NCBI GenBank assembly: GCA_021650915.1
Contig: CP091279.1
Location: 2,040,001 to 2,072,000 of the forward strand
From: Candidatus Brocadia sp.
Lineage (GTDB): Bacteria > Planctomycetota > Brocadiia > Brocadiales > Brocadiaceae
Length of the DNA stretch: 32,000 nt
Reading direction: 5' to 3'
Below are positions 1 to 4,646 of this stretch, one piece after another; the first letter of the stretch is position 1; every line of letters starts with the position of its first letter. The notes below the pieces were generated by a model. The model saw only the letters and a list, made by a program, of their open reading frames with translations, had not been told where the DNA came from and ran no database searches. The translations under genes and the position numbers were made by a program.

Positions 1-2
1 GC

Positions 3-659
3 ATTATGAAGTATTTCTTTCCAGATATCATAAATCTTCCCGTAACTATCACTCGAGTCGTGACATTCAATACACTTCTGCCGCGCTGGCTTAAATGCCG
101 TTCCGTCATACGTCAGTTGATGGCATCCGGTGCAGGAAACATCTCTGACCATAATATCCGGCACTTTTGCATTAAACCCCTTGATATTTCCTTCCCGGTA
201 TTCCTGTATACCCACATGGCAACGACGGCAATCTTCCACGTCCTTTTCCTTATGATGACAGGCCAGGCAATCCTCATCCTGCACAATGAGTTTGCCGTGG
301 GTTTCTGTGCCAACAGCGCTGTTCGTATGACAGAGATCACAGTCAAATCCCTTGCCGGGAGAATGGGCCCGATGGCTGAAAATCCTTTTTTGATAAGGAG
401 CTTCATAGGCAAGATAATTCACATGACATCGATCAATGCAGGAATGAGTAACCGCCGGGTAGTTGGACTGCATTACCTTGTTCTTATGGTTTTCCCCCGT
501 GTTTTTCTCAACCCTATTTTCATCTCCGGTAATGTACGCCATTTCAGATGGCGGACCGGGAAACATTTTGTCTGCTTTGTGGCTATTGCTACCGCCGATT
601 GCAAGATGCTGCACGAAAACGAGCAGGTGGCACAGGGAGATGGCAAACCATAGAAACAT
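3..659 (-). CDS. multiheme cytochrome c, N-terminal 219 codons (gene runs off the left window edge)
   Basis: Absent from the ORF track because it has no stop codon in the window. By hand translation the reverse frame is open from the ATG (complement of 657-659) to the edge: MFLWFAISLCHLLVFVQHL... It has an N-terminal hydrophobic helix followed by six CXXCH heme-c motifs (CIDRCH, CDLCH, CLACH, CRRCH, CTGCH, CIECH). The 6..653 + ORF is its antisense shadow. Confidence 0.8.
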   Translation of the reverse strand, partial: MFLWFAISLCHLLVFVQHLAIGGSNSHKADKMFPGPPSEMAYITGDENRVEKNTGENHKNKVMQSNYPAVTHSCIDRCHVNYLAYEAPYQKRIFSHRAHSPGKGFDCDLCHTNSAVGTETHGKLIVQDEDCLACHHKEKDVEDCRRCHVGIQEYREGNIKGFNAKVPDIMVRDVSCTGCHQLTYDGTAFKPARQKCIECHDSSDSYGKIYDIWKEILHN

Positions 660-686
660 GTCGAGCTCCGGAAATGTTGATTTTTT

Positions 687-924
687 GTAACAATTCAGCG
701 TACTTTCGCTCACAGTCACCACGAGTGAATAAAACATTGATGCTATAATCCCGAAGGGATGTCATGATTATAGCATAGTGTTATATAATTATGGTTGACC
801 CCGTGGGGGTGGCATAATATCGCCATTTTCCTGATATTTCACCCCTGCGGGGTTGAATATGGCGGTGCGTTTTTTCTATAGTCATGTCATCCCTTCGGGA
901 TTTTTCAAGAAGCTAAATTGTTAC
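687..924. repeat. MITE-like nested palindromic element with GTAACAATT termini
   Basis: Terminal inverted repeats are gtaacaattcagc (687-699) and gctaaattgttac (912-924). An internal inverted pair is atcccgaagggatgtcatgattatag / ctatagtcatgtcatcccttcgggat. Small hairpins ccccgtggggg and cccctgcgggg are also present. No ORF. It lies between two cytochrome genes of the same operon. Confidence 0.55.
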
Positions 925-931
925 TAAGATT

Positions 932-2224
932 TTAATTTTTTCGTATTATCCGCCTCAGTTGCTCAATGCTATAACCAAGCAGGTCTTTTGTGTATTTAAT
1001 GTTATGACTGCCATAGCTTCCGTCCTTTCTGATAAATTCATAATTGACCGCTGCTTCCCGGATGATGGGCAAGGCCTCGGGCGTTTGTTGGTTTTCTGCT
1101 GTTTTTATTAAAGACTTCAGCCTCTTCATCATGGATGATACAAAAAGTTTCTGTTCGAACAGTATTTTGTCAAATCCCACCTCATGGCAGGCGATACATA
1201 CTTCCGTGTTTACCTTTGCATAGAAGTCATCTTTGTGGCACGCGGAGCAATTCACGGTTGCAAGATACATAGGGTCGGGCAACCCTTGTATACCCATACC
1301 GCCTTCTCCTCTCATGATCAAATGCTGCGCTTCGTATCCGGATTCTGCAGCAAGCAAGCGATAACCCCTTTTCTTCTGATCATCGCTTTCGTTCACCCAG
1401 CCATGCGCAATAGAGGTATGGCACGGGGTGCACGGCGTCTTGCTCTTCACGGTATGATAGTAATGCATTCGTGTCGCATCGTTTGCATAGTCGACCTTTT
1501 CCGAATGACATTGACTACAGCTTGCCTCATCCACCCCTCCTGATCCCCTGACGATATTAAAGTGACAGTCCGCACAAAGAGACTTTTTTTCTTTTTCGTA
1601 TTCAAGATGCGAGAATGTCTTTCCATATATATCCCTGGTTATTTCAATGTTTTTATGACACACCGTACAGTCAGAGATAGGTTTTTCCTCATACGTGCGG
1701 AGAAATTTTCTGGTATCGATAAAATGGCAGGTATCACATGTCCTTATATCTAGTTGAAAATGTTTCTCTCCGCCAAGATTCGCGTGGCAGGCGGTGCATC
1801 TCATACTCAGATTTTCACGAAAATCAACCATATGTGTTTTATGCTGAAACGGCGTGATCTTTTTATACTGGACCGCATCAGAGGATAAGGCATTCAATGG
1901 ATGGCATGATTCCTGTGTACACTTCTGGTTTATTATTTCTACGTCCATAGCAGTAAAGGCATTCACCGGATTCATGAGATCGGTGGTAGTCGCGCCTGAG
2001 TATTCATGTCTATGGCAATCCTGACATGCAATATCTTCCGATGGCAATTTTTTACACGCGTTCGTAAAAACAACATCCTCATGGCATTTGGTACAAAACC
2101 TTGATTGTTTGGGTGATGATATCGTAGCAAACATAACAACAACGACAAACCCTATCGCAACCAGGGTGAAGATTCCCAGTTTAATGGTAAGTCTCTTATT
2201 CAATCTTCTTACTTCGTGAAACAT
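932..2224 (-). CDS. membrane-anchored multiheme cytochrome c (10 CXXCH + 1 CX4CH)
   Basis: 430-aa ORF with an N-terminal TM helix (LGIFTLVAIGFVVVVMFATI). CXXCH motifs: CTKCH, CQDCH, CTACH, CDTCH, CTVCH, CADCH, CSQCH, CTPCH, CSACH, CIACH. One additional CTQESCH (CX4CH) motif. Confidence 0.9.
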   Translation of the reverse strand: MFHEVRRLNKRLTIKLGIFTLVAIGFVVVVMFATISSPKQSRFCTKCHEDVVFTNACKKLPSEDIACQDCHRHEYSGATTTDLMNPVNAFTAMDVEIINQKCTQESCHPLNALSSDAVQYKKITPFQHKTHMVDFRENLSMRCTACHANLGGEKHFQLDIRTCDTCHFIDTRKFLRTYEEKPISDCTVCHKNIEITRDIYGKTFSHLEYEKEKKSLCADCHFNIVRGSGGVDEASCSQCHSEKVDYANDATRMHYYHTVKSKTPCTPCHTSIAHGWVNESDDQKKRGYRLLAAESGYEAQHLIMRGEGGMGIQGLPDPMYLATVNCSACHKDDFYAKVNTEVCIACHEVGFDKILFEQKLFVSSMMKRLKSLIKTAENQQTPEALPIIREAAVNYEFIRKDGSYGSHNIKYTKDLLGYSIEQLRRIIRKN

Positions 2225-2455
2225 GGCAGTTGTTTTTTCAATGAAGCATGGAGGAACGAAGACTATCCATGCCGTCTAAAACCTGCAGAAATAACAGAGC
2301 GCAGCACAGCCGCAATCAACTTCCCTTTAGAAAATGGGGTAAAGGGGATTATAAAAACTTACAAAAAAGAACGATTTTACAGGATGACAAAGGGGAACAA
2401 ACCCCGAAAAAAAGATTTTACGCGGCAATGCCTCCTGCCTGCTCAGGCTCATTTT

Positions 2456-2797
2456 TTATTCATTGGCCGGAACCTTTTTCAGCGACAGTTTGTTTTTCGG
2501 GTTGTATCTGAAGGCATTCTCGAGAAATGGCCATGAAATAAGAAATAGTGCGCAAAAGACCATAATTACTATCAGCAGCAGGTCATTTTGCAAATACTTA
2601 TGCAACTCGTAAAAAGGCAATCCAAACCAGGGAACACCAGCATATTTCTCAATGAAGGGAAACGAAAACGGCAGGAAAATGACGGCGATACATTCAACGG
2701 CGAGTAAAAAGCAGGATACGATGATATGACGGAACATTTCATTCGGGAAAAATGGCTCAAGCATCTCCGGGGTCCTTCCTTGCGTGTAATCTTTCAT
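2456..2797 (-). CDS. cytochrome b C-terminal domain / b6f subunit IV (PetD)-like membrane protein
   Basis: 113-aa ORF with AAGGAGG 5 nt upstream of the ATG. EPFFPNEMFRH and VPWFGLPFYEL match the PF(F/Y)P and PEWY-LPF type signatures of cytochrome b C-terminal domain / subunit IV. Hydrophobic helices are present. It lies 53 nt downstream of the cytochrome b6-like gene. Confidence 0.8.
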   Translation of the reverse strand: MKDYTQGRTPEMLEPFFPNEMFRHIIVSCFLLAVECIAVIFLPFSFPFIEKYAGVPWFGLPFYELHKYLQNDLLLIVIMVFCALFLISWPFLENAFRYNPKNKLSLKKVPANE

Positions 2798-2850
2798 GTA
2801 AACCTCCTTACCGGTAAAACCGTGGTGTCAAAAATTGATTCGTAAAATAA

Positions 2851-3429
2851 TTATAATGGTTCGCAAATTCCCGTTTTTCTGATCATAAAAAAATGCATAC
2901 CCATAAACGAAACCATAATGCCGGGAATGACTGCCACATGGACAACATACAGATACGACAAGCGGATGGCGACGGGTTCATTCATATTGCCAACGGACAG
3001 TAAATTTCCCGTATAATACATCAGCAGGGTAAGGATAAAGAGGCAGGAACCTGATACCCAGTGCAATTCCCGCGGATGCCGGTAAATTCCTTTATAAAAA
3101 ATACGCGCCATATGGCCTACAACCACACCGATCATAATATTCGGACCCACAGCATGGATATGCTGCATAAACCACCCGAAAGGGACATGATGCGTTATTT
3201 GCTGAATGCTGGCCACCGCCTCTTTTGTACTGGGAACAAAATAAAACATAAGAAATACGCCCGTAATTGTCTGTATGAGAAAAGCAACCAGCGATATCCC
3301 ACCCATACATCCAAACCAGCTCATTCCCTTGGGAATAAGCTTCTGTGTGATATTTTTTTCGACGATCTCTTTTAAAAAACCGCTTTCCCTGTTCATAGAT
3401 TTTGCGAATTCATGCTCTTTGTCACTCAC
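2851..3429 (-). CDS. cytochrome b6-like protein (cytochrome b N-terminal four-helix domain)
   Basis: Both bis-His heme-b pairs are present: HAVGPNIMIGVVVGH (H-x13-H) and HVAVIPGIMVSFMGMH (H-x14-H), with WFGCMGGISL at helix A. The start is uncertain. Candidates are GTG at 3429 (GGAGGG 5 nt upstream), ATG at 3396, or the TTG at 3615 (AAGGAG 9 nt upstream) that gives the 254-aa track ORF. The 60-70 residue extension has no cytochrome b counterpart. Confidence 0.85.
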   Translation of the reverse strand: MSDKEHEFAKSMNRESGFLKEIVEKNITQKLIPKGMSWFGCMGGISLVAFLIQTITGVFLMFYFVPSTKEAVASIQQITHHVPFGWFMQHIHAVGPNIMIGVVVGHMARIFYKGIYRHPRELHWVSGSCLFILTLLMYYTGNLLSVGNMNEPVAIRLSYLYVVHVAVIPGIMVSFMGMHFFMIRKTGICEPL

Positions 3430-3636
3430 TGTTACCCTCCGCAGAACTTCCTTGTTTTGCCAGGTTACACTGCCTTCCAGGCTATAACGTTCAAAAGAAA
3501 CAATCCGTTTTCTTCGTTGAACATGCGTCCGACACACAAAAAAGGCCAACCGAAAGAGAAATCCTTTTTCCTGAAGGCCATACCTTTCATCATCAGCAAG
3601 ACTATATTGAAACAAAGACTCAATCTCCTTTGAATA

Positions 3637-3664
3637 TATATATCATATTAAATTTTAATGTCAA
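3637..3664 (-). promoter_or_regulatory. sigma70-type promoter candidate for the cytochrome b operon
   Basis: The minus strand reads TTGACA (complement of 3659-3664), 16 nt, TATATA (3637-3642), with TG 1 nt upstream of the -10 (extended -10). It sits in an AT-rich region upstream of the cytochrome b gene. Confidence 0.4.
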
Positions 3665-3962
3665 TAAAAATGTTATAAATTCTGTTTGAAGAAAGATGAA
3701 CCGCAGGAAGGAAAGCGCTCAAACGCACTGAATGCGCAGGCAGCTCAATCCTGTGCATCGGGCAGGGAAGTTGTTTTGAGGATGTCGGCGGATACAATGA
3801 TTGACAACTCCAAAGCAGAGAAGAGACGAAAGACCTTACGGAAAAAATAGCAGCAAAAGCGGAATTGGTGCTATCTCAACGTAAATGCACCCACAAGCCT
3901 ATTCTGTAGTACCTTACAAAAAATATTTTGACATTTTCAGCAAAAATGTTTTTTCATGCTGC

Positions 3963-4033
3963 GTAGGGCAACCCTTTAGATGTGCCTCTGGCAGAGGCAC
4001 ATGGTATGGGCAGGTTTCAAACCTGCCCATACC
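3963..4033. repeat. cluster of perfect hairpins (REP-like)
   Basis: gtagggcaaccct (3963-3975). atgtgcctct-ggc-agaggcacat (3980-4002, 10-bp perfect stem). ggtatgggcaggttt-c-aaacctgcccatacc (4003-4033, 15-bp perfect stem). The core gggcaggtttcaaacctgccc is shared with the hairpin at 10877-10905. It generates mirror-image 101-aa pseudo-ORFs on both strands. Confidence 0.6.
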
Positions 4034-4646
4034 GTATTTCTTTTCCGACTCGTTCGGGTTTGGATCAACGGAAATTGGAAGCAAACTAACACCAATTGCA
4101 TCAAGCCATGAGTGCCCCCTGTTTTTTTTAAAAGAGAAAAAGAGGAACGGCGACTTTTTAATATTGCAAAACATTAACCCTTTTGTATAATCAAAAAGTT
4201 GTAACCATTCTTTTGACAACGTATTTTATATGGTAATCTTTTTTGGAGTTTAACCTATGATCTGGAAAAACTGCACGTCATTTCCTTACGGGTGAGTGCA
4301 CTTACCGAAGTGGCGGCGCCATTTCCAGGTTAAGTGGATAAGGTATAGACTCTTAAAGGATACCCGTTAGCACCTTCCCGAAAAAATGCAAGCAGCAGTT
4401 CTCTCTTGCAAGGTAGTTCATCATCCAATAAGAAATCCTATCCTTCATTCATTCATTTTCGTTCCATCTTTCCAGGAAAAGATGCCGTCCCTTCGTCCAA
4501 TAGTTGATTGGATAATTTGTTTCATTGAGGCACGGATTCCCGCAGATATACGCGGACTTCTGTTTGCGCAGGCTAAAGCCATGCGGCTACATGCGTAGTT
4601 GCTTTGGACAACTCAATTCAAGATTTTTTACTGGAGGATGTAATCT

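Follow-up and report, generated by a model that had tools for sequence, protein, structure and literature searches.

In cytochrome b6f complexes, the cysteine of the CxGG motif in cytochrome b6 carries the covalent heme ci, and the cd loop of b6 on the positive (p) side of the membrane forms the quinol-oxidizing (Qo) site and the Rieske dock, with the PEWY loop of subunit IV at Qo. The Rieske protein is usually regarded as inseparable from cytochrome b. We describe here a minus-strand operon of Candidatus Brocadia sp. in which a b6-like cytochrome b and a subunit IV-like protein are encoded next to two multiheme cytochromes c, with no Rieske gene. The operon lies at the left end of a 32,000-nucleotide (nt) stretch of DNA, hereafter the window (G000:C1:2040001-2072000), within a complete, single-contig genome of 4.05 Mb; coordinates are window positions unless a locus or a genome position is named. 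Two genes for the alpha subunit of hydrazine synthase mark the bearer of this genome, a member of the Brocadia group, as anammox.

A published group that the cytochrome b studied here fits is the planctomycetal 'subfamily M' (Dibrova et al. 2017, PMC5600118), which comprises short CxGG cytochromes b of Brocadia, Jettenia, Scalindua and Kuenenia, with subunit IV genes nearby in some genomes, not in that of Kuenenia. That study placed subfamily M in a tree only and suggested a third, stray Rieske protein as its partner. In Geobacter sulfurreducens, the Cbc6/ExtMNOPQS cluster (GSU2930-2935) encodes a b6-like cytochrome, ExtP, and a Rieske protein, ExtO (PMC5877670). CbcB, the b subunit of CbcBA, is of the [NiFe]-hydrogenase type and annotated as 'thiosulfate reductase'-like, and the b domain of CbcL has a formate-dehydrogenase-like arrangement of heme histidines and no sequence homology with CbcB. 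In anammox bacteria, the electron transfer module of hydrazine synthase (kuste2854-56), encoded beside hzsCBA, combines the b556-like kuste2856 with tri- and heptaheme partners (PMC6423088). The oxidoreductase that passes low-potential, hydrazine-derived electrons to the quinone pool is described in the literature as still unknown.

What might the operon encode? We incline, with somewhat better than even confidence, to the view that its four genes specify a Rieske-independent, quinone-linked membrane complex, namely a menaquinone:multiheme cytochrome c oxidoreductase that would work through a site on the negative (n) side of the membrane.

Operon content and the Rieske genes of the genome

The operon consists of four genes, in the order b6-like cytochrome b, subunit IV-like protein, 11-heme cytochrome c and 6-heme cytochrome c (Table 1), and the last two account for 11 + 6 = 17 c-type hemes. 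The open reading frames (ORFs) lie where an earlier note on this DNA, made from the sequence alone, had placed a split cytochrome b, an 11-heme and a second anchored multiheme cytochrome. That note had also stated that no Rieske gene lies upstream of or between the genes, which we confirm and can extend beyond the left edge of the window: the 6-heme gene ends there (L012:11703) and is followed by a convergent gene for an ABC-F ATPase, so that the operon is complete with four genes and holds no Rieske gene past the edge. Neither the operon nor the 12 kb to its left contains one.

When the complete genome was searched with Pfam in six frames, five cytochrome b genes and three Rieske genes emerged. 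The earlier note had proposed looking for an orphan Rieske gene; each of the three lies 0.1-2.3 kb from another cytochrome b, and the two cytochrome b genes left without one are the one in the window and its paralogue at 3.69 Mb. By gene content, the Rieske clusters (at 2.93, 0.48 and 2.49 Mb) match the three published anammox complex types, with a fused b-diheme c, an NAD(P) oxidoreductase plus an octaheme cytochrome, and an NAD(P) oxidoreductase plus a multiheme cytochrome. The operon is distinct from the Rieske/cytochrome b complexes of anammox bacteria, as the note had claimed, all three types being present elsewhere in the same genome.

Four further anammox genomes, all complete or nearly so, show the same picture: no Rieske gene was found near a cytochrome b of the present kind (hereafter M-type) and each Rieske gene sits either beside a non-M cytochrome b or alone, without any. 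In G000 and G039, which have two M-type operons, the Rieske count still stands at three.

One of the Rieske clusters merits a remark of its own. The Kustd1480-85-type cluster (G000:C1:2491113-2504001) is interrupted: an oppositely oriented ORF of 420 amino acids (aa) separates the Rieske gene from b, the genes for b, NAD(P) oxidoreductase and subunit IV are in turn kept apart by additional ORFs, and the repeat found at 680-940 of the window recurs at 2500858. This operon may have been broken up by mobile DNA.

The b6/subunit IV core and its multiheme partners

The cytochrome b matches Pfam PF00033 (Cytochrome_B; E 7.8e-24) and, among solved structures, cyanobacterial b6 (PDB 2zt9_A; E 4e-30), with residues 11-133 aligned to b6 16-138 and 145-181 to b6 179-215. 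What this alignment leaves out is a piece of the p-side cd loop, about 29 residues long; the loop shrinks from 40 residues to 11. The remainder is well kept: His81, His95, His153 and His168 (181-aa numbering) align with the b6 heme ligands on helices B and D, and the N-terminus, the FGCMGG cysteine and the C-terminal MIRKxGIxxPL line up as well. Across 72 family members, the CxGG cysteine and the equivalent of Arg207 are each retained in 70, and every one of the four histidines in at least 71. Residues that are at least 95% invariant fall mostly on n-side segments (31, in the N-terminal helix, the bc loop and the C-terminus, versus 7 on the p side).

The subunit IV-like protein shows a weak but specific resemblance to subunit IV of b6f and to nothing else, both as a family (TIGR01156; E 0.014) and as a structure (PDB 1vf5_B; E 0.007, residues 14-99 aligned to 29-121). 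Its N-terminal LEPFFPNE is conserved and it reads VPWF at the PEWY position. Together, a CxGG cysteine and a separate subunit IV would put the pair in the b6-type, heme-ci class, with attachment of the heme predicted.

All 11 heme motifs of the larger cytochrome c are invariant in 15 orthologues. A profile of its family matched OcwA (6i5b), the nonaheme surface reductase from Thermincola, over the C-terminal half (E 4e-13), MccA (4rkm; E 2e-9) and, in the stretch from the N-terminal anchor through the first hemes, NrfH (2j7a_C; E 1.5e-7). The anchor is NrfH/NapC-like, and the C-terminal half has similarity to OcwA, NrfA and MccA. On the window's own protein, the Pfam NapC/NirT model was not significant (E 0.016, in the wrong region), and homologous 18-heme proteins match both this model (PF03264; E 3e-9) and the NrfH model TIGR03153 (E 3.5e-12). 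The 'membrane-anchored undeca-heme cytochrome' of Shaw et al. could not be tied to any gene.

The first heme motif of this subunit varies with the cd loop of cytochrome b. It reads CxxCHSM, the quinol-site signature of NrfH, in 8/8 operons with a long loop, and the NrfH-type methionine (CxxCHxM) is gone in 13/13 operons with a short one, among them an independent Scalindua-like case with a chimeric gene. CHSM is confined to Scalindua-type orthologues; the window copy reads FCTKCHED. From this co-variation, which traces back to only two independent events, one may suspect that the subunit's heme 1 sits at the former Qo site.

Distribution, origin and expression

Our survey covered 61 Brocadiales genomes, from which 20 loci were taken with 9-kb flanks. 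M-type cytochromes b occur in most Brocadiaceae genera, and a form with a longer loop in the other main families. The gene order is b, subunit IV, 5-heme, 11-heme, followed by a 6-heme gene in Brocadiaceae or a 9- to 12-heme gene in the other families; orthologues of the 6-heme cytochrome are present in all operons, and the 5-heme gene of this ancestral arrangement weakly resembles ExtKL. Not one of the 20 loci, which sample the three main Brocadiales families, contained a Rieske match within its flanks.

By our own measure, the cd loop has 18-19 residues in all Brocadiaceae copies and 48 in the other families, and two Scalindua-like genomes have a differently bounded loop of 24. These two have the same genus code, g9, as long-loop genomes, and in the tree their cytochromes b branch from within the long-loop group (support 96/92). 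An approximately unbiased (AU) test against a single origin of the deletion gave a borderline p of 0.046, for a group that was named after the tree had been seen. Two independent losses of the surface that serves as the Rieske dock in b6f argue against binding of any Rieske protein here. In the same two Scalindua-like genomes, G002 and G023 (L061:6623-7465 and L062:11284-12093), the last gene of the operon is chimeric: its N-terminal part, comprising anchor and heme 1, is that of the 11-heme family (residues 1-52, 67% identity), and the remainder is a 6-heme body.

Where does this cytochrome b come from? In a tree of 57 cytochromes b, with references defined by gene context and with b6f, Bacillus and Geobacter sequences left outside, all M-type proteins of Brocadiales form one clade (support 100, stem 0.61), apart from the three Rieske-linked anammox paralogues. 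The phylogenetic placement that the earlier note had asked for hence puts the window protein in a clade of its own, with 100% support and outside the Rieske-associated paralogues. P0071, with P0192 the nearest relative in the database, branches beside this clade, and the b subunits of two clusters, in G135 and G123, are among the best non-anammox matches of P0071. Outside the anammox bacteria, the 11-heme subunit is most similar to the N-terminal two-thirds of 18-heme proteins from other Planctomycetota, with 26-30% identity over its full length, and the genes for these proteins sit in clusters with the order 4-heme, Rieske, b, subunit IV (PEWY), 9-heme, 18-heme; those in G135 and G123 are of this type. 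Because the nearest relatives of the b and the 11-heme subunits share a type of cluster that includes a Rieske gene, loss of that gene at the base of the Brocadiales is likely, and is the simplest history.

Within the genome, the paralogue at 3.69 Mb (M2) keeps the ancestral five-gene form, and the window copy (M1) has neither the 5-heme gene nor helix G of subunit IV. Within the genus, no more than four other genomes have orthologues of M1 with over 80% identity; the closest named cytochrome b is that of Candidatus Brocadia sinica (83% identity). M1 is best explained as a lineage-specific, trimmed duplicate of the five-gene operon M2. Purifying selection acts on each of its four genes: the ratio of nonsynonymous to synonymous substitutions (dN/dS) among three species is 0.14 for b, 0.17-0.23 for subunit IV, about 0.18-0.21 for the 11-heme and 0.22-0.33 for the 6-heme gene. 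Two of the four relatives that bear M1 have an extra 8-heme cytochrome with a CarboxypepD_reg domain after subunit IV. We considered this gene of the B. sinica-like operon as a hydroxylamine oxidoreductase (HAO) and rejected the idea, there being no HAO match to this CarboxypepD_reg-domain octaheme protein. In a Brocadia relative, G027 (L054:8895-11925), no subunit IV gene was detected and the 11-heme gene follows b after 21 nt.

In the Kuenenia-like G015, the operon is split. A lone b gene at 3.46 Mb (L058:9044-9760) has as neighbors the aminotransferase and peptidase genes also found on the flanks of M2, and a second locus 1.2 Mb away, at 2.29 Mb (L081:8301-11731), holds a truncated subunit IV (104 aa) with the 5-, 11- and 6-heme genes, annotated only as hypothetical.

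The operon is apparently expressed. Twelve runs recorded as RNA contain at least 88% of sampled words of positions 1-3700, and metatranscriptome contigs from three studies cover 882-3941 (without mismatch), 748-3635, and 749-3030 plus 3001-3607. These contigs span the b, subunit IV and 11-heme genes at a depth like that of neighboring fdhA. They break at the 680-940 repeat, where depth is 10-50 times that of the flanks, and their upper ends lie at 3635 and 3607 in two studies and at 3941, past the promoter-like site, in the third, which is weak evidence for a promoter.

Table 1. Features of the operon and its spacers (window positions; TM, transmembrane; MITE, miniature inverted-repeat transposable element).
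Feature	Position	Strand	Details
6-heme cytochrome c, 318 aa, N-terminal hydrophobic helix	1..659, continuing 297 nt past left edge	-	5 CxxCH + 1 CxxxCH (CIDRCH)
MITE-like palindromic repeat, about 250 bp	680..940	.	occupies the gap between the 11- and 6-heme genes
11-heme membrane-anchored cytochrome c, 430 aa	932..2224	-	10 CxxCH + 1 CxxxxCH (CTQESCH); TM helix 17-35
dispersed repeat, ~90 bp	2290..2379	.	subunit IV/11-heme spacer; up to 16 genome copies (blastn)
subunit IV-like gene, 113 aa, two TM helices, helix G missing	2456..2797	-	53 nt after b gene
cytochrome b6-like gene, 192 aa	2851..3429	-	four His heme ligands, CxGG cysteine, b6-type C-terminus
promoter-like site	3636..3664	-	TTGACA 3664-3659 + AT-rich -10 region; sequence reading, weak evidence

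As for gene boundaries, GTG 3429 is the likeliest start of cytochrome b, having GGAGG 6 nt upstream and giving the length of the B. sinica orthologue. We consider it most likely ahead of TTG 3615 and leave the start open, ATG 3396 being another alternative. TTG 3615 has a strong AAGGAG 8 nt upstream and would add an in-frame 73-aa extension (window 3430-3615), which the orthologues searched do not share and with which database entry P0001 was called; this stretch may encode a leader peptide or be open merely by chance. For the 6-heme cytochrome, the likeliest start is the MFLW at 659, because the alternative ATG 737 falls within the 680-940 repeat.

This repeat gave 98 genome matches in one search and about 55 copies by blastn. 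The shorter repeat at 2290-2379 lies in the 232-bp spacer between the subunit IV-like and 11-heme genes, at a slot that holds the 5-heme gene in the paralogue. The extra 8-heme gene of the closest species occupies exactly this position, which suggests gain or loss of a cytochrome cassette in association with the repeat. The earlier note had described 1 kb of repeat-filled DNA upstream; the spacer shared with the divergent fdhA gene (3430-4646, ~1.2 kb) in fact has only about 0.3 kb of repeat (3777-4064). Two arms of a hairpin-type repeat lie in it (3907-3968 and 4004-4064), with 12-13 genome copies each. The 53 nt that separate the arms are missing from the contigs of two RNA studies, which have 13 other letters in their place, probably derived from other repeat copies.

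Function, rival explanations and known systems

How would a complex of these four products work? In the scheme that we favor, the b6/subunit IV core would carry hemes bp, bn and covalent ci, and two membrane-anchored cytochromes on the p side would contribute 11 and 6 hemes. The n-side pocket (Qi, at heme ci) would be the only intact quinone site, and the b hemes would form a transmembrane wire between it and the c-heme chain. An n-side-only quinone site joined to a b-heme wire would make this an oxidoreductase that runs without the bifurcating Q cycle of Rieske-type enzymes. In the favored direction, low-potential electrons from c-type hemes, for instance from hydrazine oxidation, would pass from the p side to menaquinone on the n side and build up membrane potential; in reverse, membrane potential would be spent to push quinol electrons outward. 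The site of quinone chemistry and the physiological partners are ones we infer. The earlier note's idea of a quinone-linked module that feeds or drains multiheme wires remains the best reading.

Several points weigh against this view. The direction of electron flow comes from reasoning and is speculative, and assembly of the four products into one complex is read from the genes. The RNA contigs attest to presence in RNA libraries, not to a level or to a single transcript. An AlphaFold2 model of the 11-heme subunit, built from 15 sequences, is poor (mean confidence score pLDDT 45.6), and the NrfH-like anchor of this subunit could by itself oxidize quinol. The absent PEWY glutamate is not diagnostic, because the Rieske-linked subunit IVs of the same genome, which read APWY at this position, do without it too; we therefore dropped it as a marker. 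Finally, P-W-F/Y and the downstream LP..Y..L of subunit IV remain conserved in the family alignment, and with them some p-side pocket may survive.

The last point leads to the rival that survives best, a Q cycle without Rieske protein. Quinol would be oxidized at a remodeled Qo-like pocket, with the NrfH-like heme 1 of the 11-heme subunit in place of the Rieske 2Fe-2S cluster and the second electron going via bp, bn and ci to the n-side site. The NrfH match of the 11-heme N-terminus and the conserved P-W-F/Y region speak for this scheme, and the loss of the CxxCHSM methionine together with the cd loop in two independent deletions points to a physical link between this heme and the lid of Qo. 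However, two events are a narrow basis for co-variation, and the window form, having neither the loop nor the methionine, leaves the scheme to describe at best an ancestral, Scalindua-type complex. Nor are we aware of any case in which a heme has taken over from the Rieske cluster, and we regard this Q cycle as possible but doubtful. Slightly more tentative still is a combination of the two ideas, whereby the Scalindua-type ancestor would run a Q cycle with an NrfH-type heme for the Rieske center, and the Brocadiaceae form would be an electrogenic cytochrome c:menaquinone reductase that takes hydrazine electrons from the anammoxosome lumen to the quinone pool via heme ci.

Alternatively, the 11-heme cytochrome may itself be the quinol dehydrogenase, similar to CymA, NrfH or ImcH, and the b6/subunit IV pair a scaffold or a separate, loosely linked module. 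Its NrfH-like anchor would fit, as would the PF03264 and TIGR03153 matches of the 18-heme homologues, but the window copy has lost the NrfH-type methionine and gives no significant NapC/NirT match. Moreover, b and subunit IV stay syntenic with the cytochromes c across the order, are under purifying selection and keep their heme ligands. We consider this alternative unlikely. A normal Q cycle with a Rieske protein borrowed in trans seems to us more improbable again. Such a partner was suggested for subfamily M (PMC5600118), and anammox genomes do contain several Rieske genes each, yet every one is paired with another b, lone copies in other anammox genomes aside, their number does not rise with duplication of the M-type operon, and the cd loop, the docking surface in b6f, has been deleted twice independently. 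Least credible of all is a decaying duplicate without a function of its own, to which the lost 5-heme gene and helix G, the two dispersed repeats inside the operon and the related G027 copy lacking a detectable subunit IV gene might point, but which sits badly with open frames, intact heme motifs, dN/dS of 0.14-0.33 across three species and RNA-library contigs from three studies with a depth like that of fdhA.

If our preferred reading of a Rieske-independent oxidoreductase is right, the M-type complex is a concrete candidate for the hydrazine-to-quinone step in anammox energetics. A whole bacterial order keeps the b6/subunit IV core with its three heme sites and no Rieske protein, and in Brocadiaceae no docking loop either, which amounts to a natural experiment on what the b-heme/heme-ci half does alone. 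That the operon has not been studied as a unit may be due to Kuenenia, where its genes are split between two loci; enrichments of Brocadia or Scalindua are better suited for testing the complex.

How, then, does the operon compare with known systems? Its core is like that of b6f and the Firmicute b6c complexes, its best matches among solved structures, with a four-helix b6 (bp, bn, heme ci) and a split subunit IV. Unlike these, it has no Rieske protein, no cytochrome f or c1 and no cd1/cd2 helices, and it combines a two-helix subunit IV with 17 c hemes. With the anammox Rieske/cytochrome b complexes (Kuste3096-97, Kuste4569-74 and Kustd1480-85) it shares a split b6-type b, the CxGG motif and multiheme c subunits; those, however, have a Rieske gene each, an NAD(P) oxidoreductase in two cases and a long cd loop, and fall into separate clades.

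Like CbcBA, CbcL and kuste2854-56, the operon belongs among proposed quinone:multiheme cytochrome modules without Rieske protein. We rejected CbcBA and CbcL as relatives, their b subunits being described as hydrogenase-type or formate-dehydrogenase-like rather than b6-like, and the hydrazine-synthase module as an identity, its b subunit being described as similar to the cytochrome b556 subunit of formate dehydrogenase and the hzsA genes lying far off, at 1.41 and 2.47 Mb. The resemblance to Cbc modules of Geobacter, which the earlier note had drawn, therefore holds only loosely, since the sole Cbc cluster with a b6-like subunit, Cbc6, has its own Rieske protein ExtO. Like Cbc6/ExtMNOPQS, the operon sets a b6-like b and a small membrane subunit beside several large multiheme cytochromes, and planctomycete clusters resembling Cbc6 hold the nearest homologues of its b and 11-heme subunits. 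Yet Cbc6-type clusters encode a Rieske protein and the subunit IV of planctomycete cluster L083 has the canonical PEWY, whereas the window operon has neither. Against the ExtP model (NF040969; cut-off 290 bits), its b scored 141.5 bits, which is below the 266-270 of the genome's Rieske-linked b subunits and thus marks the match as generic.

We found no publication on this operon, on the multiheme cytochromes encoded in it, on the deletion in the loop or on the biochemistry of the clade. The clade of the window b fits subfamily M, matched by the published description: it is 83% identical to the B. sinica protein, the tree sets the clade apart, and Kuenenia has a lone b gene. Contrary to the partner suggested for that subfamily, the complete genomes analyzed here have no Rieske gene to spare, and what our data add to the account are the deletion of the cd loop, the conserved multiheme partners and the second locus of Kuenenia.

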